Assembly: GCA_026396515.1 (NCBI GenBank)
Contig: JAPLWQ010000003.1
Coordinates: forward strand, 26,204 to 90,203
Length of the DNA stretch: 64,000 nt
Direction of reading: 5' to 3'
Source of the DNA: Candidatus Magasanikiibacteriota bacterium
GTDB taxonomy: Bacteria > Patescibacteriota > Patescibacteriia > Magasanikbacterales > GWA2-37-8
Shown: one piece after another, positions 4,528 to 43,554 of the stretch
Layout of the letters: every line of letters starts with the position of its first letter
Position numbering within the stretch: the first letter of the stretch is position 1
The notes under the pieces: model-generated
What the model was told of the DNA's origin: nothing
The model's database searches: none
Seen by the model: only the letters and a program-made list of their open reading frames with translations
Position numbers and translations under genes: made by a program

Positions 4528-6588
4528 ATGCTTCAAAGAGAAGTCGGGACGAAAATCGGTTTCGCCATTTTAGCTGTGATTTTTGTTATTTGCGGCGGAA
4601 TTCTCGTTTTTGCCGCCACGCGCGGCGATCTTAAAGTAGTGCTGGAAAATTCCATTATTGGAAAAAAAATCGGCGCGGAAAAATTATCAGGCGTTGTAGC
4701 TGAAGTTAAGAAGTTCGCTTCAGCCGATGAATTTAAGAAATATCTTGCTGAGCACGCGCAACAATCCAATAATTACGGTTTTGGCATAGGCGGCGGTGAA
4801 ATGCGCACGATGGTGGCGCAAGATAGCGCCATGGGACTGGCTCAACCGGTAGGTATTGGTATGGCGGAGAAAGGTTCAGAAACGGCGACGGCGCCATCGG
4901 CCGGACGAGTTTCTGAAACCAATGTGCAGGTGGCCGGCATTGATGAGCCGGATATCGTAAAAACCGACGGCAAAGAAATTTATTTTTCACGGTTCGGCGG
5001 ATATTATCCGTATATGCGCGCCGTGCCGATGAATGGCGCAGCGGAAAAAATGATTGCCCCGCCATACTACAACCAGGGAGAAACAAAGTTGATCGCCGCT
5101 TTTCCGCCTGAATCAATGAAGGAAGATTCAAAGCTGGATAAGAGTGGCGACCTGTTGCTCGACGGCAATATTATGATGGTTTTCGCGAGTGACAATAAAA
5201 TATATGCTTATGATGTGAAGGACAAGGCCAACCCAAAAGAATTGTGGACCGCTAAACTTGGCGACCGCGAAAATTTAGTTGGCGCCCGCTTGATGAACAG
5301 TAAAATATATCTGACAACACAAAGCGGAGTTGATTACGGTAAGCCGTGCCCGATAGTGCCTTTAACCGTCGGCAAAGATGAGGTGAGCATCTCTTGTACT
5401 GATATTTATTATCCAACTTCAGCATCCGGCGCCGATGTTACCTATGATTTCGTAGTGATGGACACTTTGACCGGTGCGGTGGAGAAAAAAACGGCTTTTG
5501 TCGGTTCATCCGGACAAACCGTTTTTTATATGTCTGAAAATGCCATCTATTTGACCTTCCAAACGGAAGTTGATTCGGTAAAAGTAGCTTATGATTTCTT
5601 TTCCGAAAATAAGGATCTGGTGCCGGATTGGGTAATAGAACGCCTGAATAAAGTGAAAGGGTATGACTTAAGCATGAACGCGAAACAGACGGAATTGCAA
5701 TCCATATTACAGCAATATACCAACTCGTTGAATAATGACGACATGCTTAAAATGCAAAATGAAATGTCCAACCGGATGGACAAATTTTATCTGAATCATC
5801 GGCGTGATTTGGATATTACCGGCATAGTAAAAATTTCTTTGAACGACTTTAAAGCGATTGCCGGAGCGGTGCCGGGCCACCCTCTTAATCAATTCTCGCT
5901 TGATGAATACGACAAACATTTGCGCGTCGCCATGACTGTGGGTGATCGCTGGTGGGGAATGGGCGGATTCGGCGGTACGGGTAAAACAGTAAGCGATGTA
6001 TATGTGCTCGATAATGATTTGAATATCGTCGGGTCGGTTAAAGATCTTGGTGAAACCGAGCGTATATATTCCGTGCGCTTTTTAGCAGACCGCGGATATG
6101 TGGTTACTTTCAGGGAAACTGATCCGTTTTACGTATTAGATCTGGCAAATCCGAAAAATCCTTTATTGAGAGGCGAGCTAAAAATTCCGGGGTTTTCTTC
6201 CTACCTGCATCCGCTTGGGGCTCATAAAGTTTTGGGTATTGGCCGTGAAGACGGAAAGGTAAAGCTGTCAATTTTTGACGCCACTTCTCCGGAAAATCCG
6301 AAAGAGCTCTCAAAATATATCCTGAGTGAATACTGGTCCGAGGCCATTAATAACCACCATGCCTTTCTCTTGGATGAAAAACATAAAGTATTTTTCATTC
6401 CCGGCGGACAGGGCGGGTATGTGTTCGGGTATGACAAAGATGAGTTGACGCTTAAAAAAGCTGTTAGCGAATCACAGGTGCAAAGAGCGATATATCTGGA
6501 CGACTACATGTATCTGATTGGCAATGACAAGATTACGGTTTTGGACGAAAAGAGCTGGGAAAAAGTCAAAGAATTTGAGCTGAAGTAA
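4528..6588 (+). CDS. Membrane-anchored secreted beta-propeller domain protein (PF09826-like)
   Basis: N-terminal hydrophobic helix (IGFAILAVIFVICGGILVFAA). Segment NVQVAGIDEPDIVKTDGKEIYFS resembles the start of the bacterial/archaeal Beta_propel family. 686 aa. Confidence 0.55.
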   Translation: MLQREVGTKIGFAILAVIFVICGGILVFAATRGDLKVVLENSIIGKKIGAEKLSGVVAEVKKFASADEFKKYLAEHAQQSNNYGFGIGGGEMRTMVAQDSAMGLAQPVGIGMAEKGSETATAPSAGRVSETNVQVAGIDEPDIVKTDGKEIYFSRFGGYYPYMRAVPMNGAAEKMIAPPYYNQGETKLIAAFPPESMKEDSKLDKSGDLLLDGNIMMVFASDNKIYAYDVKDKANPKELWTAKLGDRENLVGARLMNSKIYLTTQSGVDYGKPCPIVPLTVGKDEVSISCTDIYYPTSASGADVTYDFVVMDTLTGAVEKKTAFVGSSGQTVFYMSENAIYLTFQTEVDSVKVAYDFFSENKDLVPDWVIERLNKVKGYDLSMNAKQTELQSILQQYTNSLNNDDMLKMQNEMSNRMDKFYLNHRRDLDITGIVKISLNDFKAIAGAVPGHPLNQFSLDEYDKHLRVAMTVGDRWWGMGGFGGTGKTVSDVYVLDNDLNIVGSVKDLGETERIYSVRFLADRGYVVTFRETDPFYVLDLANPKNPLLRGELKIPGFSSYLHPLGAHKVLGIGREDGKVKLSIFDATSPENPKELSKYILSEYWSEAINNHHAFLLDEKHKVFFIPGGQGGYVFGYDKDELTLKKAVSESQVQRAIYLDDYMYLIGNDKITVLDEKSWEKVKEFELK

Positions 6589-33179: not shown

Positions 33180-34739
33180 ATGAAAACAAAACCAACAGTA
33201 CTCGCGATCATGGATGGTTGGGGAATAGCGCCGATAGAAAACAAAGGTAATCCGATTACGCCAAAAAATGCGCCTAATTTTTTTTCTTGGCTGAAAAAAT
33301 ACCCGAATACTGAAATTGCCGCCAGCGGAGAATCAGTTGGGCTTTTTAAGGGCGAAGATGGCAATAGTGAAGCCGGACATATGAATTTGGGAGCCGGCCG
33401 GGTGGTACAACAAGACGCCATATATATATCTGATGCGATTGAAGATGGTACATTTTTTAAAAATCCCGCCTTTCATCAGGCCTTGCATCATTTGCACAAA
33501 TATAAGACAGCCGCCCATGTGATGGGTCTGCTATCCAATCATAACAGCGCTCATTCCTGTCCGGAGCATCTTTACGCGCTTTTGGATTTTTTACGGAGTG
33601 AGGGCGTAAAAAAGATATTCTTGCATTTGTTTACCGATGGCCGCGATTCCGGCCAGCACGACGCGCCTAAACATCTAAAAAAATTGCGCGAGCACATGAA
33701 AAATGGCGAAAAGATAGCCACTATTACCGGCCGATTTTACGCCATGGATCGCGGGAAAAACTGGGATCGCCTAAAAGGAGCTTATGAAGCAATTGTTATG
33801 GGTCGAGGTGTGCGTTGTACCGCGCACAGCGCTGAGGAAGCGATTGCCCAGGCATACAATAGCGGTGAAACGGACGAGTACATTTGCCCCACTGTGATCA
33901 TGGATGACGGTCATCCGGTTACTTCAATAAAAGATAATGATGTAATTTTTTTCTTTAATCTGCGCAGTGACCGCGCGCGTGAACTGACTAAAGCGTTTGT
34001 TCAGCCGGATTTTGAGCAAATAAATGACGGCGCTTTCCATCGTGCGTTTGTGCCGAAAAATACGCGCTTTGTTGCTATGACTGATTTTGGACCGGACCTG
34101 CCGCATGTCTTAACCGCCTATCCCAGCCGGGATGTGGTTAACAGTTTGCCGCGGGTTTTGTGTCCCCACCAACAGCTATACATCGCTGAAACAGAAAAAT
34201 TCGCCCATGTGACATATTTTTTCAACGGAGGTTATGGCCGGCATTTTTGCGACGAACGCTGGATAAAAATCGCTTCGGTTGAAGTGAAAAATTATAAAGA
34301 TCGTCCGGAAATGAGCGCTAAATTAATTACTGATGTTTTAACAAAGGCAATTGAAAAAGACGGATATGAATTTGTCTGTGTTAATTTCGCCAATCCGGAC
34401 ATGGTGGCGCATAGCGGCGATATGGAAGCAACCGCTAAAGCAATTCGCACGGTTGATACCGAGATGGCGCGTCTGATAAAAGTTGTGGAAAGACTCGACG
34501 GACAAATGATAATTACTGCTGACCACGGTAATGCCGAAGAGCTGGTTAATCTGAAAACCGGCGAAGTTGATACAGAGCATTCCACCAATCCGGTTCCGTT
34601 TATTGTTGTGGGAAAAAAATATTCAAAAAGTAAATTAAAACTGCGTAAAAACGGCAAGCTCGGCGATGTGGCGCCCACGATCCTAAAAATGATGGATATT
34701 CCAAAACCAAAGGAGATGACAGGTAAAAGTATATTTTAA
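33180..34739 (+). CDS. gpmI: 2,3-bisphosphoglycerate-independent phosphoglycerate mutase, paralog 1
   Basis: ILDGWG, GNSEAGHMNLGAGR, DGRD and ADHGNAEE motifs. Confidence 0.85.
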   Translation: MKTKPTVLAIMDGWGIAPIENKGNPITPKNAPNFFSWLKKYPNTEIAASGESVGLFKGEDGNSEAGHMNLGAGRVVQQDAIYISDAIEDGTFFKNPAFHQALHHLHKYKTAAHVMGLLSNHNSAHSCPEHLYALLDFLRSEGVKKIFLHLFTDGRDSGQHDAPKHLKKLREHMKNGEKIATITGRFYAMDRGKNWDRLKGAYEAIVMGRGVRCTAHSAEEAIAQAYNSGETDEYICPTVIMDDGHPVTSIKDNDVIFFFNLRSDRARELTKAFVQPDFEQINDGAFHRAFVPKNTRFVAMTDFGPDLPHVLTAYPSRDVVNSLPRVLCPHQQLYIAETEKFAHVTYFFNGGYGRHFCDERWIKIASVEVKNYKDRPEMSAKLITDVLTKAIEKDGYEFVCVNFANPDMVAHSGDMEATAKAIRTVDTEMARLIKVVERLDGQMIITADHGNAEELVNLKTGEVDTEHSTNPVPFIVVGKKYSKSKLKLRKNGKLGDVAPTILKMMDIPKPKEMTGKSIF

Positions 34740-34741
34740 TT

Positions 34742-36334
34742 ATGCCTCACAAACATAAACCGGTTGTCTTAATCATCCTCGACGGCTGGGGAATTGCTCC
34801 GGACGGAGAAGGCAACGCCATCGCAAAAGCCAAAACACCCAATCTGGATGATTACAAAAAAAATTATCCGGTGACGACTATTACCGCGAGCGGTACCGAG
34901 GTTGGGTTGTCATTTGGCGAAGTGGGCAATTCCGAAGTCGGCCATTTAAATATTGGCGCCGGCAGGGTGTATTATCAAACACTGCCGCGTATTGACCAGG
35001 AAATATTAAATGGAAATTTTTTTGGCAATCAGGCATTTTTATCGGCTTTTGAACACGTGAAAAAAAACAAGTCAAATCTTCATCTGATGGGGCTCGTTTC
35101 CGCCGGAAAAGTGCATTCCAGCGATGAGCACCTCCATCGGCTGCTTGAGATGGCAAAGAAAAACGGCTGTTCAAAAAATGTTTATGTTCACGCCTTTCTT
35201 GACGGCAGAGATACTTTGTATAATTCAGGCAAATATTTTATCGGGCAGTTAATAAATAAAATGCAGGAGTTAAAAACCGGCAAGCTGGCGACACTGGCCG
35301 GCCGCTATTGGGCGATGGACAGAGATAACCATTGGGACAGGATTGAAAAAGTTTTTCGGGCATTAACAGTAGGCGAAGCCGATCGGATGGCACCCGACCC
35401 GTTGCAGGCGATAGATGGCGCATACGCCAACAAAAACTATGACGAAGAATTTTTACCAACGGTTATTACCGATAAAAACGGAAAGCCCACAATTACCATT
35501 AAAGATAACGACGCCGTGATATTTTTTAATTTTCGTCCGGACCGGGCGCGTGAGATGACCAAAGCGTTCGTTTTGCCGGAGTTTGATAAGTTTCCTCATC
35601 AGGCGCTTAATAATCTGTATTTTGCGACCATGGGTGAGTATGAAAAAGATTTGCCGGTATCGGCTGTGGCTTTTCCGCCGGTTGTAATTATTAATGGTTT
35701 AGCCGAAACCGTCAGCCGGGCCGGTCTGCAACAATTTCATATTGCCGAAACTGAAAAATATGCCCACATTACATTTTTTATAAATGGCACCAGAGAGGAT
35801 CCGTTTCCCGGAGAAGACAGAAAAATTATTCCTTCGCCAAAGGTATCTTCATATGATCAGCAGCCGGAGATGTCGGCTGTTCCGGTGGCAAAAGAAACGG
35901 TCAAGGCCGTGGAAAGCGGAAAGTATGATTTTATTGCCGTAAACTTCGCCAACGCAGATATGGTCGGCCACACCGGCTTGCTTGAGCCCACAATTACGGC
36001 CTGTGAAACAATTGATGAGTGTGTCGGCAGCATCGTTGACCATGTTTTGGCCCATGAGGGCGCGGTTGTCATTACGGCCGATCACGGTAATGCCGAAGAG
36101 GTCGTAAATTTGCAGACAGGGGATATAGACAAAGAACATTCAACAAATCCCGTGCCGCTGTATATTGTCAGCCGGGATTTAATGGGGCAGGCCGGCCCGA
36201 GCGGAGACCCGCCCGAGGGGGACTTGAGTTTATTGCAGCCGGTGGGTATGCTTTCCGATGTTGCTCCGACAATTTTAAAATTAATGGGTTTGGAACAACC
36301 GCCGGAGATGACCGGCTCCAGTTTAATTCAATAG
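34742..36334 (+). CDS. gpmI: 2,3-bisphosphoglycerate-independent phosphoglycerate mutase, paralog 2
   Basis: ILDGWG, GNSEVGHLNIGAGR, DGRD and ADHGNAEE motifs. Divergent from the upstream paralog. Confidence 0.85.
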   Translation: MPHKHKPVVLIILDGWGIAPDGEGNAIAKAKTPNLDDYKKNYPVTTITASGTEVGLSFGEVGNSEVGHLNIGAGRVYYQTLPRIDQEILNGNFFGNQAFLSAFEHVKKNKSNLHLMGLVSAGKVHSSDEHLHRLLEMAKKNGCSKNVYVHAFLDGRDTLYNSGKYFIGQLINKMQELKTGKLATLAGRYWAMDRDNHWDRIEKVFRALTVGEADRMAPDPLQAIDGAYANKNYDEEFLPTVITDKNGKPTITIKDNDAVIFFNFRPDRAREMTKAFVLPEFDKFPHQALNNLYFATMGEYEKDLPVSAVAFPPVVIINGLAETVSRAGLQQFHIAETEKYAHITFFINGTREDPFPGEDRKIIPSPKVSSYDQQPEMSAVPVAKETVKAVESGKYDFIAVNFANADMVGHTGLLEPTITACETIDECVGSIVDHVLAHEGAVVITADHGNAEEVVNLQTGDIDKEHSTNPVPLYIVSRDLMGQAGPSGDPPEGDLSLLQPVGMLSDVAPTILKLMGLEQPPEMTGSSLIQ

Positions 36335-37537: not shown

Positions 37538-37664
37538 TAGCGGAATTTTTGCCTGTGTGAACACTATTTTGGCGAAATTTAGCAGAATATCGAGTCTTCC
37601 AGGTTGCTTTTTCCGTCTATTTTCATTAAAATATATGTTAATTGTACATAAAATAGCAGTGAAC

Positions 37665-40316
37665 ATGAAAGAGCTGGAAAAGGCCTACGAGGCGAAGAAA
37701 TACGAAGATGGTATCTACGAAAAATGGGAAGAGTCCGGGTTGTTTAATCCGGATGTTTGCGTTGAAAAAAGCACTGCAAAAAAGGACGCGCCTATTTTTT
37801 CCATGGTTTTGCCCCCGCCGAATGTAACCGGCGTTCTGCATATGGGCCACGCCGCCATGCTTGCCATTGAAGACGCCATGATCCGCTACCACAGAATGAA
37901 GGGCGACAGGACTTTATGGCTGCCGGGCACCGACCATGCCGCCATTGCCACTCAAACCAAGGTGGAAAAGTTGCTTATGGAAAAGGGTGTGAAAGACCCG
38001 CGAGTTGAGCTTGGCCGTGAAAAATTTTTGGAAGAAGTGGATAAATTCGCCAAGGCCTCGCACGATACGATAATCAATCAGTGCAAGAAAATGGGTTCGA
38101 GTCTGGACTGGAGCAGGGAGGCGTTTACGCTGGACGAAAAAAGAAATCTGGCGGTGAGAACCGTTTTCAAAAAAATGTATGACGACGGACTGATAGAGCG
38201 CGGGTACAGAATTGTCAATTGGTGCCCTCGTTGTCACTCGACTTTGGCTGACGATGAAGTGGAATACAAGGAGCAATCGGCGAAGATTTACATCTTTAAA
38301 TATTCGGCGGACTTTCCGTTTGCTATTGCGACCACTCGGCCGGAGACAAAACTTGGCGATACAGCCGTGGCGGTAAACCCTAAAGATAAGCGATACAAAA
38401 AGTTCATTGGTAAAACTTTTAAAGTAAAGAGTTTCGCCGGTGGCGCTGATTTAAATATTGAAGTAATCGGCGACGAAGCCGTGGATATGAATTTTGGAAC
38501 TGGCGCGCTCGGTGTTACTCCGGCGCACAGCCACGTGGATTATGAAATGGCGCAAAAAAATAATTTACCGGTAATAAAAGTTATTGACGAAGACGGAAAC
38601 ATGGCGGCGGACGCCGGTACCGTTTATGCCGGGCTGTCGGTCAAAGATGCCAGAAAAAAAGTCGTGGAGAATTTACGTGTCAGCAATTTATTGGAAAAAG
38701 AAGAAGACGCGCCGAATAATTTGTCAGTTTGTTACCGCTGTGAAACGCCGATCGAACCATTACCGTCCAAGCAGTGGTTTATCAAAGTGAACAAAGAATT
38801 TCAAATGGGGCCGAGTAAAATTATGGGAATAAAAGAAGGGCAGAAAACCACCTTAAAGAAATTGATGCAGGCGGCGGTGCGTGAAGGACAGATAAAAATT
38901 ATTCCCGATCGTTTTGATAAAACATATTTTCACTGGATAGACAATCTGCATGACTGGTGTATCAGCCGTCAGATTTGGTATGGGCACCGCATTCCGGTGT
39001 GGTACAAAGGCGACCAAACTTATGTAGGCTTTGAAGCGCCAAAAGACAGCGGCTGGCAGCAGGATTCCGATACGCTGGACACTTGGTTCAGTTCCGGTCT
39101 TTGGACTTTTTCAACGCTCGGCTGGCCGGATAAGACCGATGACTTCAATAATTATCATCCGACATCTGTACTTGAAACCGGCTATGATATATTGCCGTTC
39201 TGGGTGGCGCGCATGATTCTTATGACCACCTACACGCTCGGCGACATTCCTTTTGAAACGGTTTATCTGCACGGCCTGGTGCGCGACGAACAGGGCAGAA
39301 AGATGAGCAAGTCTTTGGGCAATGTAATTGATCCGCTCGCTATGGTGGAAAAATTCGGCGCGGATGCCACGCGTTTGTCACTAATGCTCGGCAATACTCC
39401 GGGCAATGATTCCAGATTGTCCGAGGAAAAGATCGCCGGTTTCCGTAATTTTACCAACAAGCTCTGGAACATTTGCCGGTATATGATGATGCAGATTGAT
39501 TTTGAAAAAAGCGAACCGGCGAAACCGGTGACCTTGGCTGATTTTTGGATTTTAGAGCGTTTGCATGAGATTGCGTCCGATACCTCAAAACATATTGAAC
39601 AGTTCAATTTTTCTTTTGCCGGTGAGAAGCTTCGCGATTTTACCTGGAATGAGTTGGCCGATTGGTATTTGGAGATTTCCAAAATTGAAGGAAATAAATC
39701 CGGCATTCTGCAATATATTCTGGAAACGATACTTAAGCTCTGGCACCCGTTTATGCCTTTTGTCACGGAAGCGATATGGTCGGAAATACCCGGCAAGAAG
39801 TTACTTATGGCTGAAAAGTGGCCGCAGCTAAAAAAGGAAAAAATTTCAGGCAGGGTCAAGGACTTTGAGATCATAAAAAATATTATTACCAATATACGGT
39901 CTTTGCGGGCAGAATATAAAGTGGAGCCGGCAAAAAAAATTAGTGTCAGCATTGGCGCCGGAAAATTTGCGGGCCTGTTAAAGGATAATGTTGAAATTCT
40001 TCAGGGACTGGCAAGAATTGAAAAAATACAAATAGACAAGTCAATGAAAAAACCGGGTAATTCGGTCGGCTTTTTGGAAAGCGGGGTGGAAGTGTTTATT
40101 GATCTCTCCGGTCTGGTTGATTTTGCCAAAGAAAAAATTCGTCTGCAGAAAGAAATCGGCGAGGTGGAGCCGTATATCGCCGTGTTGAAAAAGAAGCTAT
40201 CAAACAAGGAATTTGTAAAAAATGCGCCAAAAGAAATTGTGGCAAATGAGAATGCAAAACTGGCCGAGGCTGAAGAGATGCTCGCCAAGTTAAATGACCA
40301 ACTAAAATCAATTTAA
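37665..40316 (+). CDS. valS: Valyl-tRNA synthetase
   Basis: PPPNVTGVLHMGHA (HIGH), KMSKSLGN and C-terminal coiled coil. Confidence 0.95.
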   Translation: MKELEKAYEAKKYEDGIYEKWEESGLFNPDVCVEKSTAKKDAPIFSMVLPPPNVTGVLHMGHAAMLAIEDAMIRYHRMKGDRTLWLPGTDHAAIATQTKVEKLLMEKGVKDPRVELGREKFLEEVDKFAKASHDTIINQCKKMGSSLDWSREAFTLDEKRNLAVRTVFKKMYDDGLIERGYRIVNWCPRCHSTLADDEVEYKEQSAKIYIFKYSADFPFAIATTRPETKLGDTAVAVNPKDKRYKKFIGKTFKVKSFAGGADLNIEVIGDEAVDMNFGTGALGVTPAHSHVDYEMAQKNNLPVIKVIDEDGNMAADAGTVYAGLSVKDARKKVVENLRVSNLLEKEEDAPNNLSVCYRCETPIEPLPSKQWFIKVNKEFQMGPSKIMGIKEGQKTTLKKLMQAAVREGQIKIIPDRFDKTYFHWIDNLHDWCISRQIWYGHRIPVWYKGDQTYVGFEAPKDSGWQQDSDTLDTWFSSGLWTFSTLGWPDKTDDFNNYHPTSVLETGYDILPFWVARMILMTTYTLGDIPFETVYLHGLVRDEQGRKMSKSLGNVIDPLAMVEKFGADATRLSLMLGNTPGNDSRLSEEKIAGFRNFTNKLWNICRYMMMQIDFEKSEPAKPVTLADFWILERLHEIASDTSKHIEQFNFSFAGEKLRDFTWNELADWYLEISKIEGNKSGILQYILETILKLWHPFMPFVTEAIWSEIPGKKLLMAEKWPQLKKEKISGRVKDFEIIKNIITNIRSLRAEYKVEPAKKISVSIGAGKFAGLLKDNVEILQGLARIEKIQIDKSMKKPGNSVGFLESGVEVFIDLSGLVDFAKEKIRLQKEIGEVEPYIAVLKKKLSNKEFVKNAPKEIVANENAKLAEAEEMLAKLNDQLKSI

Positions 40317-40317
40317 T

Positions 40318-41298
40318 ATGTCCGAATTCGCCAAAGTAAATCCTGGTGATATATCCCCTAAACAAGAAAAAGAGCCCGAAACAGTATTGTCTCCCAAAGA
40401 TAATGCCCGCCTTATTAATATCCTTAAAAGAGCCAAAGCGGCTGAAGCAGATGAAGACACTATGCTCGCCATCCGGCTGTATGAAGAGTATCTTGAAGAG
40501 TTTGAAAAGATCAAAAGAGACGGACCATCACCTGAAACTCCTTCAGATCCTAACATTATCATTGCTACCAATCCTGAAGGAAAAGAAGTATCTATTAATT
40601 TAGAATCCACCCTTCTTAATTCAAAGTATCTGTACGCCATTAACAATTTGACGAAATTCTCCGATGCCCTTCCCGAAACCATTACTCTATCTGAATCATC
40701 TCTGGCCCGTTGCCGTGAAGCCCTGGAACAGGGTTTTGATAAAGCCATCTTTTTCCCCAACCTGGAAGTACAGCTTGAAAAAGTTGGCATAACCAAATTA
40801 AAACAAGAGCTGGCTGACAAACCCTTGCCTAAGGGTACTTTTCCAGATGAAAAAGATAACTATTCTAGGGAATCTTATCTGCAAAACCCTATTGCTGAAA
40901 ATCATTCTCTCACTGAATCAGCCCAAGCTAAAAGAAAGAATGGCTATCTTCTTTTCTACTCGTCCAATCCAGTACCCAAAGAAACTAAAAACCTCACCTT
41001 CCCTGAAGCCGTACAATACCTTAAAGACAAAAACCTGGATGGTCTCACCTTGCCCGAATATTACATCCTCCAAAGAAAAGAAGCTGAAATTAACGAAGAC
41101 CACTCTTTTGATGCCTACAATGATGACGCGGATCAATCCAATTCGACTTGGCTAATTGACTCTCGCGCGCCCGGGGGCTGCGTGCGCGCGGTCTGGAATC
41201 CGGACGATCGGCGGGTGGTTGTGTACTGGAGCGGTGCCGGGAATCAGTACTCGGATTTGGGGGCGCGCCCCGCGATCGTTGTGCCCTTAGAACTTTAG
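40318..41298 (+). CDS. Hypothetical protein, CpG-depleted body with a CpG-rich palindromic 3' tail; possibly a chimera or pseudogene
   Basis: ATG 1 nt after the valS stop. Pyrimidine-ending codons (CCC/CTC/ACC/ATC) up to about 41140, then about 150 nt of roughly 65 % GC. Confidence 0.4.
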   Translation: MSEFAKVNPGDISPKQEKEPETVLSPKDNARLINILKRAKAAEADEDTMLAIRLYEEYLEEFEKIKRDGPSPETPSDPNIIIATNPEGKEVSINLESTLLNSKYLYAINNLTKFSDALPETITLSESSLARCREALEQGFDKAIFFPNLEVQLEKVGITKLKQELADKPLPKGTFPDEKDNYSRESYLQNPIAENHSLTESAQAKRKNGYLLFYSSNPVPKETKNLTFPEAVQYLKDKNLDGLTLPEYYILQRKEAEINEDHSFDAYNDDADQSNSTWLIDSRAPGGCVRAVWNPDDRRVVVYWSGAGNQYSDLGARPAIVVPLEL

Positions 41299-41408
41299 TC
41301 TTTAAGCTCTAACCTCTCATTTTGTCATTGCGAGGACCCGCCTTTGGCGGGGACGAAGCAATCTTTATTCCTTAATCTTTTCCGAAATTTGTAAACATAA
41401 CGCCATTT

Positions 41409-42590
41409 ATGAAAATAAACACTGACCCCAAAAAAATTGAAGAAGTGCTGTCGCGCGGCGTGGAACAGGTCGTCGACAAAAATCACCTTGCGGAGAAATT
41501 AAAGTCCGGAAAACAATTACGCGTAAAATTAGGCGTTGACCCGACAAGTCCGAATATTCATTTGGGCCGTTCAATTCCGCTTCTTAAACTGCGCGACTTT
41601 CAGGAGTTGGGGCATCAAATCGTGTTAATCGTCGGTGATTTTACCGGAGTGATCGGAGATACTTCAGACAAGGACAGCGAACGGCCGATGCTTACACACG
41701 AACAGGTTAAAGCGAATATGGAAGGATATTTTGAACAGGCGGCCCGGGTAATTGATATCCGCAAGTGCGAAAAATATTACAACAGCGAATGGCTGGGAAA
41801 ACTTAATTATCATGAAATCGGCGAGCAGGCCGACCAATTTTCAGTGGCGGAGTTTATCGCCCGCGAAAATATAAAAAAGCGCTTAGAGGGCGGTACGCGC
41901 GTTTCTCTGCGCGAAGTGCTTTATCCTCTGATGCAGGGTTATGATAGCGTGGCCATGAAAGCCGATGTGGAACTGGGCGGCACGGATCAGTGGTTTAATT
42001 TATTGGCCGGAAGAAAATTGCAGGAACATTACAAGCAGGAGCCGCAGGATATTTTAGTCGGTCCGTTGCTTGAAGGCACTGACGGCCGCAAGATGAGCAG
42101 CAGCTGGGGTAATACCATTAATCTCCTGGCCGAACCAAACGACATGTTTGGAAAAATAATGTCAATTCCGGACGGGTTGATTATTAAATATTTTACTCTG
42201 GCGACCCGCGCGCCGATGGCGGACATCGCGTTGTATGAAAAAGAAATAAAATCAGGCGGTAATCCGCGCGATTATAAAATAAAATTGGCTGAATACTTAA
42301 CAAGCGTGTATCACGGTGATAAAGAAGCCAAGAAAGCGCTGGAATATTTTGTCAGCACGTTCAGTAAAAAGGAGATTCCTGATGAAATGCCGGAAGTGTC
42401 GGCGCGAGATATTGCAAGCGCGCTGGTGGAATCAAAAATTTGCAAAAGCAAATCAGAAGCGCGCCAGGTGATTGACCAGGGCGGAGTGAAAATTAATGAA
42501 ATTAAAGTTGAAGCGGGTGATTATGCCGCCGCTGTTAAGGCCGGCGATATTGTTCAAAAAGGCAGCCGGTGGTTTGTAAGAATAAAATAG
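41409..42590 (+). CDS. tyrS: Tyrosyl-tRNA synthetase
   Basis: PTSPNIHLGR (HIGH), KMSSS, YPLMQGYDSV and C-terminal S4 domain. Confidence 0.9.
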   Translation: MKINTDPKKIEEVLSRGVEQVVDKNHLAEKLKSGKQLRVKLGVDPTSPNIHLGRSIPLLKLRDFQELGHQIVLIVGDFTGVIGDTSDKDSERPMLTHEQVKANMEGYFEQAARVIDIRKCEKYYNSEWLGKLNYHEIGEQADQFSVAEFIARENIKKRLEGGTRVSLREVLYPLMQGYDSVAMKADVELGGTDQWFNLLAGRKLQEHYKQEPQDILVGPLLEGTDGRKMSSSWGNTINLLAEPNDMFGKIMSIPDGLIIKYFTLATRAPMADIALYEKEIKSGGNPRDYKIKLAEYLTSVYHGDKEAKKALEYFVSTFSKKEIPDEMPEVSARDIASALVESKICKSKSEARQVIDQGGVKINEIKVEAGDYAAAVKAGDIVQKGSRWFVRIK

Positions 42591-42597
42591 CAAATTT

Positions 42598-43554
42598 GTG
42601 GACAATAAATTGGTTATCTGTATTTTCCTTTTTTCCGCCATGCTGCTGGGCGGTTTTGGTTGTGAAAAGAAAGAAACGCCGGTAATAGCGAGAAGCGAAA
42701 AAATTCCTCAAAGCGCGGTAAAAATTTCGCCACAAGCCGATTTATCGCCGCCAATATTGCATTCAAAAGAATTTGACATGCCGGTACCTGTGTCCGGGCC
42801 GATTAATACTGCCGGAGCGGAAGATTCGCCGTTCATTACGCCCGATGGCAACACACTATATTTTTTCTTTACGCCTGACCCGAACATTCCGGCTGAAAAA
42901 CAGTTGAATGACGGTGTTACAGGCATTTATGTGTCAGAGAATGTGAATGGCAAGTGGAGCGAACCAAAAAGAGTGATTTTGGAAAGGCCCGGGGAATCCG
43001 CGCTTGACGGTTGTGAGTTCGTGAAAGGCGATGTAATGTGGTTTTGCTCGGCCAGAGAAGGATACACCGGAATAAATTTATTTACTGCTAAAAAGATTAA
43101 TAACGGGTGGGGCGGCGTAAAGTATGCGGGCGATGTGCTGATGAAAGATTATCAGGTCGGTGAGATGCATATTACGGCTGACGGGAATGAAATGTATTTT
43201 CATTCTCCGCAAGCGGGAGGAAAAGGCCAATTAGATATTTGGGTGATGAAAAAAGTTAATGATGAATGGCAGGCGCCTGAAAATGTGACAGCAGTCAATA
43301 CAGCGGAAAATGACGGCTGGCCGTTTATTTCAGAAGACGGCAATGAACTGTGGTTTCTGCGGACATATCGAGGGTCGCCGGCGATTTTCAGATCAAAGAA
43401 AGCGGACGGTGTTTGGCAGAAGCCGGAGCTGATCGTATCGCAGTTTGCCGGCGAGCCGACTTTGGACAGGGCCGGAAATATGTATTTTGTCCATCATTAT
43501 TATAAAAACGGAAAAATGCTGGAGGCCGATATTTATATGGCCAGGAAAAAATAA
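42598..43554 (+). CDS. Lipoprotein with PD40/TolB-like beta-propeller repeats
   Basis: Signal peptide ending LGGFGC; repeated DGN..YF motifs. GTG start. Confidence 0.55.
   Translation: MDNKLVICIFLFSAMLLGGFGCEKKETPVIARSEKIPQSAVKISPQADLSPPILHSKEFDMPVPVSGPINTAGAEDSPFITPDGNTLYFFFTPDPNIPAEKQLNDGVTGIYVSENVNGKWSEPKRVILERPGESALDGCEFVKGDVMWFCSAREGYTGINLFTAKKINNGWGGVKYAGDVLMKDYQVGEMHITADGNEMYFHSPQAGGKGQLDIWVMKKVNDEWQAPENVTAVNTAENDGWPFISEDGNELWFLRTYRGSPAIFRSKKADGVWQKPELIVSQFAGEPTLDRAGNMYFVHHYYKNGKMLEADIYMARKK

Follow-up and report, generated by a model that had tools for sequence, protein, structure and literature searches.

Diversity-generating retroelements (DGRs) are bacterial systems by which a protein has its binding tip rewritten. 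Variable proteins of DGRs of the candidate phyla radiation (CPR) were reportedly first described by Paul et al. in 2017. One DGR clade (clade 2) is restricted to the CPR, with targets that comprise no recognisable domains, and remote targets are known as well (Roux et al. 2021, PMC8144416). Retrohoming requires inverted repeats on the downstream side of the variable region (VR), and the hairpin of phage DGRs comprises a stem of 7-10 bp with a GRNA loop at a distance of 4-34 nt (PMC3240598). Furthermore, DGRs have been linked to the vWA-MoxR (VMAP) ternary conflict systems (Kaur et al. 2020, PMC7159879). The ORF described here (40318-41298) belongs to a Candidatus Magasanikbacteria MAG, and its product (MCX6781954.1, NTW66_02450) is annotated as "hypothetical protein". 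The window, i.e. the whole stretch of DNA that was analysed, comprises 64 kb of a 394-kb contig, and the MAG has multiple contigs. The ORF is very probably a DGR target of the CPR-restricted kind that was acquired horizontally as an insertion and that, if still diversified, is served in trans. It is a new example of a known system and not a decaying chimera, and an unannotated protein of puzzling composition can now be recognised as a DGR variable protein.

The features of the locus are compiled in Table 1. The coordinates and the Pfam domains of the neighbours agree with the earlier note, which had placed the ORF between valS and tyrS and its start 1 nt past the valS stop codon (TAA, 40314-40316). 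The tyrS product corresponds to MCX6781955.1 (100% match). In three relatives (L157, L158 and L159), whose TyrRS is 80-84% identical to that of the window, the gene order gpmI-DHH-valS-tyrS-argS-bactofilin is otherwise the same as here, while valS and tyrS overlap by 4 nt (ATGA). Since this overlap occurs in close relatives with the same gene order, the additional DNA can be explained by an insertion in the window. Judged from these sequence comparisons, the whole gene and its flank were acquired horizontally as a 1.1-kb insertion between the two synthetase genes, which explains why the codon usage of the gene body is foreign and poor in CpG. A foreign origin of the gene had been proposed before, and it is supported both by the overlap in the relatives and by the non-host codon and CpG usage. 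The locus represents a clean case of a target gene gained by insertion into a conserved synthetase operon.

Table 1. Features of the valS-tyrS interval and its neighbours, with positions counted from the first letter of the window.
Feature	Position	Strand	Remarks
valS (valyl-tRNA synthetase)	37635..40316	+	upstream neighbour; Pfam tRNA-synt_1, Anticodon_1, Val_tRNA-synt_C
Probable lineage-specific insertion, 1092 nt	40317..41408	+	target gene, 3' flank and hairpin
Very probable DGR target (variable protein) gene, 326 aa	40318..41298	+	14 full-length homologues, 301 relative clusters
Gene body, foreign composition	40318..41140	+	CpG-poor, G3-poor, CCG codons absent
Module, residues 80-326	40555..41295	+	in relatives attached to MoxR-type AAA_5 ATPases at their C-terminus
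C-terminal C-type-lectin-like (FGE-type) domain, residues ~205-326	40930..41295	+	displays the variable residues; modelled fold
GC-rich palindromic segment cgcgcgcccgggggctgcgtgcgcgcg	41164..41190	+	from 41165 on, 5' end of TR/VR homology
Variable region (VR), 118 nt, residues 283-322	41165..41282	+	ungapped match to L002 template repeat (TR) 6388-6505
GGGGCGCGCCCC, GC-rich element at the VR 3' end (IMH-like)	41260..41271	+	common to template and VR
Conserved VR-specific 3' flank	41283..41323	+	last codons, stop and non-coding DNA; 84% DNA identity to P0003 locus
Hairpin GTCATTGCGAGG-[ACCCGCC TTT GGCGGGG A]-CGAAGCAATC	41324..41363	+	outer stem 41327-41331/41358-41362; inner stem 41337-41342/41346-41351
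T-rich tract TTTATTCCTTAATCTTTTCC	41364..41385	+	end of similarity to related loci; with hairpin 92% to P0003 locus
tyrS (tyrosyl-tRNA synthetase)	41409..42590	+	downstream neighbour; Pfam tRNA-synt_1b, SYY_C-terminal, S4

The ratio of observed to expected CpG (o/e) along the gene was not uniform: it amounted to 0.60 over the gene body and to 1.37 in the tail (41141-41298, 63.3% GC), compared to a window mean of 1.32. All of the five lowest 300-nt o/e values of the 64 kb lie within 40301-41100, with a minimum of 0.24. By resampling synonymous codons for the same amino acids with the codon usage of the window's 42 other ORFs, 45.9±4.8 CpG were expected for the first 822 nt, while 20 were observed (z = -5.4), and none of 2000 samples was as low. 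The body also showed a third-position G of 0.109 compared to 0.13-0.31 in the others, an NCG codon share of 5% compared to 19-47%, a GC skew of -0.205, and no CCG among its 19 proline codons compared to 60% in the host. The CpG depletion over ~820 nt, which had been noticed in contrast to the CpG-rich host genes, is accordingly found in the o/e profile as well as in the codon resampling. A CpG depletion common to the whole family was rejected, since the gene bodies of the homologues are only mildly low (0.93-1.36). The GC-rich tail of ~150 nt with two palindromes (41164-41190 and 41260-41271) was also present as described, and in every homologue the tail is GC-rich as well (60-67%). Its richness in GC and CpG can be explained by a sequence that is set by the template repeat and not by host codon usage. 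Where a gene shows a sharp switch of GC and CpG at its 3' end and a hairpin behind it, this can indicate a DGR target, even one far from the retroelement.

A comparison with the template repeat of L002, a related CPR contig, showed 15 mismatches in the window VR, 13 of them at template adenines (hypergeometric P=6e-9) and two at non-adenines, the template in this test being that of another organism. Expressed as identity, the VR matches this template to 97.8% at non-A sites and to 48% at A sites. Within L002 itself, the template repeat (6388-6505), which abuts bAvd, differs from its own three VRs at adenines in 10 of 10, 10 of 10 and 10 of 11 mismatches, and the TR/VR pair of L026 showed 8 of 10. 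The variable codons are the Asn codons AAC/AAT of the template. At the protein level, the column entropy of 14 proteins was 2.25 bits at A-codons compared to 0.63 elsewhere (Mann-Whitney P=2e-6); hypervariability is confined to the template-adenine codons, with an invariant scaffold between them.

Both ends of the homology are conserved. The palindromic segment at the 5' end recurs in L002, in the template repeat as well as in the three VRs, with one T/C exchange as the only difference, while GGGGCGCGCCCC shows no change among template repeat and VRs in L002, L028 and L029 and reads GGCGCGCGCCCC in L026. The homology between template repeats and VRs stops at 41282, 11 nt past GGGGCGCGCCCC, from where the VRs continue with GCCC.. 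and the template repeats with TATT... Within the 3' flank, ..TTAGTCTTTAA[A/G]CTCTA.. is common to four VRs. DNA identity to the P0003 locus is 52% in the gene body and 82% in the VR, followed by the higher values of the 3' flank and of the hairpin with T tract (Table 1). The features of a target site, i.e. a GC-rich VR 3' end, template-divergent sequence beyond it and a downstream inverted repeat, are present, their role in retrohoming being putative. A metagenome scan with the 23-nt VR end added no more than two VR genes, both located on short contigs, and a scan of genome contigs with GGGGCGCGCCCCGCGRTCGT only chance matches in high-GC organisms.

The imperfect hairpin that had been seen after the stop codon was reproduced by folding, with a DNA fold of -9.2 kcal/mol (z = -2.7), a value that was reached by 1 of 200 shuffles. 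A hairpin with the same constant base and with a tip that varies in sequence but always pairs with itself is also found downstream of the VRs in L001/L002, L028 and L029. At least 166 copies of this hairpin family were counted in 120 IMG/VR viral contigs, and the same family is common where a DGR is absent. The earlier term "REP-like" is a fair label for such a dispersed family, but the window holds one copy only, a search of its 64 kb for further ones being negative even with 2 mismatches. Rfam gave no match to the hairpin, and a literature search with its sequence gave unrelated primer matches only. With regard to termination, a stem is present and is followed by CTTTATTCCTTAATCTTTT, a tail rich in T yet not an unbroken run, the consensus terminator scan made no call, and T-rich tails follow the hairpin in related DGR loci. 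A function of the family as a general terminator is weakened by T tracts after only 8% of the copies elsewhere. Plausibly, the conserved 3' flank and the hairpin form a target-site recognition element and/or a terminator. Similarity to L002 past the hairpin ends where the GIY-YIG cassette of that contig starts. As a separate observation, the hairpin in relatives also brackets small GIY-YIG nuclease genes; a general tie between the two was rejected, as no GIY-YIG gene lies near the 166 copies in viral contigs.

Searches of Pfam, NCBIfam, PHROGs and PADLOC with the 326-aa protein gave no family, and it comprises neither a transmembrane segment nor a lipoprotein signal. A search of IMG/VR for relatives of the protein gave none, so that there is no sign of a phage-borne family. 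The earlier statement that the N-terminal 270 aa belong to no recognisable family holds for these four databases, whereas its boundary was misplaced with regard to the domain at ~205-326, and about 300 clusters of relatives exist. The modelled C-terminal domain shows a C-type-lectin fold resembling TvpA and Mtd at a sequence identity of 8-17%, and the VR is located inside this modelled fold at the C-terminal end of an intact ORF. A tblastn comparison showed that residues 442-684 of a 686-aa AAA_5 protein of L002 are 62% identical to 40555-41286, and 8 of 9 long relatives comprise an N-terminal AAA_5 domain. In related genomes, the module occurs in cassettes with, or fused to, a MoxR-type AAA_5 ATPase beside a vWA protein, which suggests that it may act as the diversified binding or sensor subunit of a MoxR-type ATPase system. 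The recurrent fusion ties the CPR target family to MoxR-type ATPases and offers a lead to function in organisms with tiny genomes.

In related loci, the retroelement is found close to the homologues: a reverse transcriptase adjoins them in L002/L003, L026, L030, L032, L033 and L034, the homologue P0008 directly follows bAvd and RVT_1, and cassettes of this type also contain P0003 and P0006. The bAvd of these loci belongs to Pfam PF22296, with DivGenRetAVD as best NCBIfam match below its cut-off. The reverse transcriptase of L002 carries LGNLTSQ, an instance of the [I/L]GxxxSQ signature by which reverse transcriptases of the DGR type can be recognised. Within the 64-kb window, neither the reverse transcriptase nor the Avd of L002 gave a tblastn match, and a second copy of the tail or a template repeat was found neither by blastn (word size 7) nor by repeat search; the gene is surrounded by 40 kb upstream and 23 kb downstream in which these components are absent. 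The GIY-YIG, AAA_5 and vWA cassette proteins gave no tblastn match in the window except for the target module itself. A reverse transcriptase of the MAG itself (NTW66 names) was sought among the reverse transcriptase homologues and not found. The template repeats of L030, L032, L033 and L034 were rejected as cognate, since they are only ~70-77% like the window VR. As reverse transcriptase, Avd and template repeat are absent from the 64 kb, any current activity is putative.

Several other origins of the composition have to be considered. The earlier note had inferred a foreign gene whose 3' end had been exchanged or broken up by a GC-rich repetitive element, so that the ORF would be chimeric or in decay. 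In line with this reading, the composition switches sharply near 41140, the tail does represent one copy of a repeated class (TR/VR), and the hairpin of a repeat family follows it. However, all 14 homologues are full length and keep the last 50 aa in frame, a finding that had been named beforehand as one that would speak against the proposal, and it is in these 50 aa that the least variable columns of the family are found (W293, P295, V300, W304 and G315-A316-R317). Furthermore, nearly all of the 301 clusters of relatives, 76 of them with E<=1e-30, match through to their own C-terminus, the tail and the upstream residues are predicted to fold as one confident domain, and the tail has no other copy in the window. 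A disrupted ORF is hardly credible; the tail is a repeat-derived, overwritten segment, yet a working part of an intact gene. An artificial join of DNA from two organisms inside the ORF, by assembly or binning, is the least probable of all readings. The composition changes twice within 1.1 kb, and both Logan contigs stop inside the gene at 41076, for which a paralogue of 78% identity with an identical protein stretch at this position would be the simplest reason. From 41076 onward, two independent Logan assemblies (SRR20698648 and SRR20698649) match without mismatch over 7.5 and 5.7 kb, crossing the switch at ~41140, the hairpin and tyrS. Reading frame and domain run through without a break, and homologues from other samples show them conserved. 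Very improbable, too, is an explanation without any retroelement, according to which a domain rich in Gly, Ala, Arg, Pro and Trp needs GC codons and the variable sites are ordinary fast-evolving surface residues. On the basis of amino-acid composition alone, a GC of 60.8±2.6% is indeed to be expected for the VR, compared to ~43% for the gene body, but the 120 in-frame nt over the VR (41164-41283) showed 70.8% (z = +3.8). In addition, relatives carry a non-coding template copy beside bAvd and reverse transcriptase with differences almost only at adenines, silent non-A sites are nearly identical across organisms whose gene bodies share 41-52% of their DNA sequence, and the substitutions among VRs are not spread evenly over A and non-A template positions.

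A clearly more serious alternative, though still on the unlikely side, is a target that was written in a donor and is now static, with no cognate DGR here and with the GC-rich tail as a historical imprint. In favour of this, no reverse transcriptase, Avd or template repeat was identified in the 64 kb or for the MAG, the VR consensus is identical in the two sequencing runs (SRR20698648 and SRR20698649; consensus assemblies), the foreign composition of the gene body is unameliorated, which points to a recent arrival, and around the homologue P0009 a reverse transcriptase is likewise missing from the ~7.6 kb read on the upstream side and the 10 kb read on the downstream side. On the other hand, a paralogue of the same MAG (NTW66_00415), 81% identical outside and 57% inside the VR, differs mainly at template-adenine codons, which fits two targets of one resident template. 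The non-adenine sites of the VR are 98% identical to a heterologous template, compared to ~50% for the gene body. Moreover, DGRs acting on remote VRs are documented (PMC8144416), and the view covers 64 kb of a larger contig in a multi-contig MAG.

For the preferred reading, a DGR target gained by insertion, the course of events can be proposed by analogy with characterised DGRs. RNA of the template repeat would be copied by the reverse transcriptase with Avd, adenines would be misread in copying, and the cDNA would take the place of the 118-nt VR. About 15 codons (AAC/AAT in the template) would be randomised on the putative ligand-binding face of the C-type-lectin-like domain, while scaffold codons without adenine would remain fixed. 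The two palindromic GC blocks represent the conserved termini of the TR/VR homology on its 5' and its 3' side, with GGGGCGCGCCCC presumably standing in for the GC-rich part of the IMH target-site element. If the window copy is still diversified, it would be a remote target served in trans, and DGR finders that need reverse transcriptase and VR on one contig miss such targets (PMC8144416). A further idea, which we regard as rather doubtful, is that target gene, VR, 3' flank and hairpin form a self-contained docking cassette that is transferred horizontally among CPR genomes on its own, apart from the reverse transcriptase, and can be adopted in trans by a resident DGR with a matching template, the hairpin being a shared handle for mobility and/or retrohoming. 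Such a cassette would here have landed between two essential synthetase genes.

Compared to REP-type hairpins and intrinsic terminators, the locus shares an imperfect hairpin just past the stop codon with a following T-rich tract, and a dispersed family with constant base and variable tip. It differs from them by its single copy in 64 kb, the terminator scan without a call, the T tracts in only 8% of the family elsewhere and the lack of an Rfam match. In contrast to the hairpin of phage DGRs, that of the window has a 6-bp GC stem and a TTT loop and begins 42 nt past the VR. A VR whose end is a GC-rich block common to the template, and an inverted repeat downstream of it, are shared with Mtd of Bordetella phage BPP-1 and TvpA of Treponema denticola, whereas the sequences are only 8-17% identical and the protein is neither a phage tail fibre nor the bearer of a lipoprotein signal. 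With regard to the vWA-MoxR (VMAP) systems, the lectin domain is there usually fused to the vWA component, while it is free-standing or ATPase-fused here (PMC7159879), and partner genes (AAA_5, vWA) are absent from the 64-kb window. Common to both are the target module of related CPR loci adjoining or fused to a MoxR-type AAA_5 ATPase, related CPR loci with a vWA/CobT_C/transglutaminase protein, bAvd and reverse transcriptase, and a diversified domain of FGE-type lectin fold. Unlike the described variable proteins of CPR DGRs, the window copy stands alone between two aminoacyl-tRNA synthetase genes and shows a foreign codon usage. It shares with them the host group Candidatus Magasanikbacteria, a VR at the extreme C-terminus, the Asn codons AAC/AAT in the template, a protein without transmembrane segment or Pfam domain, and related loci in which bAvd and reverse transcriptase lie beside the template repeat and one element serves several targets.

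In three syntenic relatives (L157, L158 and L159), whose TyrRS is 80-84% identical to that of the window and which comprise the same neighbourhood (gpmI, DHH, valS, tyrS, argS, bactofilin and so on), the valS and tyrS genes share an ATGA overlap. Accordingly, the window carries an insertion of 1092 nt between these two synthetase genes, both of which were confirmed by Pfam. The encoded protein is identical to MCX6781954.1 ('hypothetical protein', NTW66_02450), which is encoded on a 394-kb contig in a MAG of Candidatus Magasanikbacteria. Both the insertion and the codon usage of the gene body support the foreign origin that the earlier note had proposed. A second lineage-specific insertion was observed between tyrS and argS (42598-43554); it encodes a PD40 (beta-propeller repeat) protein of 318 aa whose N-terminus is hydrophobic, is absent from L157 and L159 and shows a host-normal CpG (1.36-1.38).

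The CpG-poor gene body described in the earlier note was clearly reflected in the calculated profile, with a CpG o/e of 0.60 across 40318-41140 compared to 1.32 as the mean of the window. The five lowest-CpG 300-nt windows of the 64 kb all lie within the gene (minimum 0.24). This does not originate from the amino-acid content, since a synonymous-codon redraw of the same protein with the codon usage of the remaining 42 ORFs in the window resulted in 45.9±4.8 expected CpG, compared to 20 observed (z = -5.4). Third-position G (0.109) and the share of NCG codons (5%) were the lowest among the window ORFs, the GC skew (-0.205) was the most negative, and proline was encoded by CCG in 0 of 19 cases compared to 60% in the host. 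The gene bodies of homologues showed CpG values of 0.93-1.36, merely mildly low relative to their own contigs, which indicates that the strong depletion is peculiar to the window copy and not a family trait. The GC-rich tail was found as described, with 63% GC and a CpG o/e of 1.37 in the last 158 nt, and the 120 nt that span the variable region (VR) in frame reach 70.8% GC, ten points above the amino-acid requirement (z = +3.8). Every homologue examined has such a tail (60-67%), the genomes themselves being at about 44% GC.

Features of the inserted gene and of related loci (window coordinates unless a contig is named)
Feature	Location	Strand	DNA identity to P0003 locus	Remark
Insertion, 1092 nt	40317-41408			Target gene, 3' flank and hairpin
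Target ORF, 326 aa	40318-41298	+		Starts 1 nt past valS stop; ends 110 nt before tyrS
N-terminal part	40318-40900		52%	
Putative lectin scaffold	40901-41164		66%	
VR	41165-41282		82%	
Palindrome cgcgcgcccgggggctgcgtgcgcgcg	Window VR			5' end of TR/VR homology
Palindrome GGGGCGCGCCCC	41260-41271			3' end of TR/VR homology
3' flank	41283-41323		84%	Identity measured over 41283-41325
Hairpin and T-rich tract	41324-41385		92%	Identity measured over 41326-41385
Template repeat (TR), 118 nt, non-coding	L002 6388-6505			Abuts bAvd end; matches 3' ends of three genes on that contig
GIY-YIG nuclease genes, 87 aa	L002 1007-1270, 9206-9469			Same contig as L001; follow two of three VRs
Hairpin copies	L002 1328-1353, 9140-9169, 9498-9525			
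MoxR-type AAA_5 ATPases	L002 4011-6071; P0261, P0290, P0301, P0303, P0306, P0311, P0349, P0388			C-terminal DGR target module with own VR

The tail had been read as a GC-rich repeat that replaced or disrupted the 3' end, leaving a chimeric or decaying ORF. Its repeat origin holds true in the form of TR/VR homology of a diversity-generating retroelement (DGR), in which mismatches between a non-coding and a coding copy lie almost only at adenines of the former. Among the homologues, P0008 is encoded immediately after the genes for bAvd and a reverse transcriptase; that contig also encodes P0003, at a distance of 8 kb, and P0006 belongs to a similar cassette. In L002, a contig of the candidate phyla radiation (CPR), 10/10, 10/10 and 10/11 mismatches of the three copies fall on adenines of the TR; for the pair in L026, another related locus, it is 8 of 10. 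On a contig of otherwise about 44% GC, the latter cassette adjoins an RNase J-like gene with 61% GC (L026 373-1791), likewise a compositional outlier. The window's VR aligns with the L002 template without gaps and 13 of 15 differences are located at template adenines (hypergeometric P = 6e-9), corresponding to 97.8% identity at non-adenine and 48% at adenine sites. The variable codons coincide exactly with Asn AAC/AAT in this template, and the column entropy of 14 proteins was 2.25 bits at adenine-bearing codons compared to 0.63 elsewhere (P = 2e-6). A paralogue in the same MAG, 78% identical overall, showed 81% identity outside and 57% within the VR. Both palindromes of the earlier note mark the ends of the TR/VR homology, which stops 11 nt after 41271, where VRs read GCCC and templates TATT.

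The ORF is neither chimeric nor decaying: its homologues are full length and keep the C-terminal 50 aa, the outcome that the earlier note had itself named as refuting such a reading. All 14 relatives found among 5.8 billion proteins are full length, and of the 301 relatives that a profile search retrieved from 1.84 billion cluster representatives, nearly all match as far as their own C-terminus. In the alignment of the 14, the last 50 residues form the invariant framework of the family (W293, P295, V300, W304, G315-A316-R317), alternating with very variable columns. Assembly continuity was observed in two independent Logan assemblies, SRR20698648 (L155) and SRR20698649 (L156), which match the window perfectly from 41076 across the switch in composition, VR, hairpin, tyrS and 4-6 kb beyond; this covers the gene from 41076 to its 3' end. 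Both assemblies begin at one and the same base within the gene, some 90 nt ahead of the VR, which likely results from the paralogue (MCX6781577.1, on a 129-kb contig), since an identical protein stretch appears to be common to both there. Altogether, there is good support for placing the gene in a DGR target family, as a CPR variable protein gene that was gained through insertion.

Searches of the 64-kb window for a reverse transcriptase, Avd or a template repeat were negative, and the MAG's own DGR element was not identified among reverse transcriptase homologues. DGRs acting on remote targets in trans are documented (PMC8144416). The copy, whose consensus VR is the same in both sequencing runs, may be such a remote target or a static relic of the transfer. 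The protein matched no family in Pfam, NCBIfam, PHROGs or PADLOC, consistent with CPR DGR targets without recognisable domains (PMC8144416); relatives were not found in IMG/VR viral contigs, and no hydrophobic segment was detected (maximum Kyte-Doolittle 19-residue mean 0.62). The AlphaFold2 model built on the alignment of 14 sequences (mean pLDDT 82.5) suggests a lectin-type fold of the C-terminal domain, with moderate confidence, since Foldseek against the PDB gave nothing significant. Tandem paralogous ORFs occur elsewhere in the window (33180-34739 and 34742-36334, the second phosphoglycerate-mutase-like and cofactor-independent), with a common 98-nt stretch of 73% identity (repeat D1).

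The DNA identity to the P0003 locus climbs along the gene toward the 3' end. Since retrohoming rewrites the VR only, the conserved 3' flank points to a possible cis-acting role or a recent exchange of the 3' module. The REP-like hairpin of the earlier note (41324-41363) gave a better fold than 199 of 200 shuffled sequences and, with one copy in the window, belongs to a very widespread repeat family with a constant base (GTCATTGCGAGG ... CGAAGCAATC) and a tip varying in length and sequence, always self-pairing; hairpins of this family also follow VRs in L001/L002, L028 and L029. In characterised DGRs an inverted repeat just past the VR is needed for efficient retrohoming, its structure counting more than its sequence (PMC3240598). 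However, phage DGR hairpins comprise 7-10 bp stems and GRNA loops 4-34 nt from the VR (PMC3240598), while the window hairpin shows a 6-bp GC stem within a 5-bp outer stem and a TTT loop, starting 42 nt after the VR. An exact-pattern scan of IMG/VR for GTCATTGCGAGG-N(2-32)-CGAAGCAATC gave at least 166 copies in 120 viral contigs (L035-L154; 34-72% GC), mostly without T tracts, with up to 7 copies per 10 kb among the matches listed and no GIY-YIG genes near the listed copies. Neither an Rfam family nor, in a full-text search for the motif, a relevant paper was found. Judged by this distribution, the hairpin is far from DGR-specific. Due to this and the difference from the phage type, its role here can only be inferred: it may serve as a recognition element or as a terminator, or it may be a repeat that is simply carried along. 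In L002, hairpin copies stand on both sides of each GIY-YIG gene, which is also flanked by an 18-nt inverted repeat (CCCTCACCTTTTAATTTT / AAAATTAAAAGGTGAGGG), so that these units resemble a putative small mobile cassette. In the window the hairpin is present and the GIY-YIG gene absent; the likeness to L002 ends exactly at the cassette start.

The related loci comprise a common cassette of a MoxR-type AAA_5 ATPase, one to three targets, TR, bAvd (opposite strand), reverse transcriptase, a vWA/CobT_C/transglutaminase protein and sometimes a small GIY-YIG gene; none of the partner genes (AAA_5, vWA etc.) occurs within the 64-kb window. Residues 442-684 of the L002 AAA_5 protein, a part with its own VR, share 62% identity with residues 80-323 of the target protein, and 8 of 9 long relatives carry an N-terminal AAA_5 domain. 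This recurrent fusion suggests that the free-standing target protein may work with such an ATPase. The genes adjoining the fusions encode vWA/CobT_C or transglutaminase-vWA proteins. This organisation is reminiscent of the DGR-linked vWA-MoxR conflict systems known from cyanobacteria and gammaproteobacteria (PMC7159879), of which the fusions and their vWA neighbours look like a CPR counterpart.
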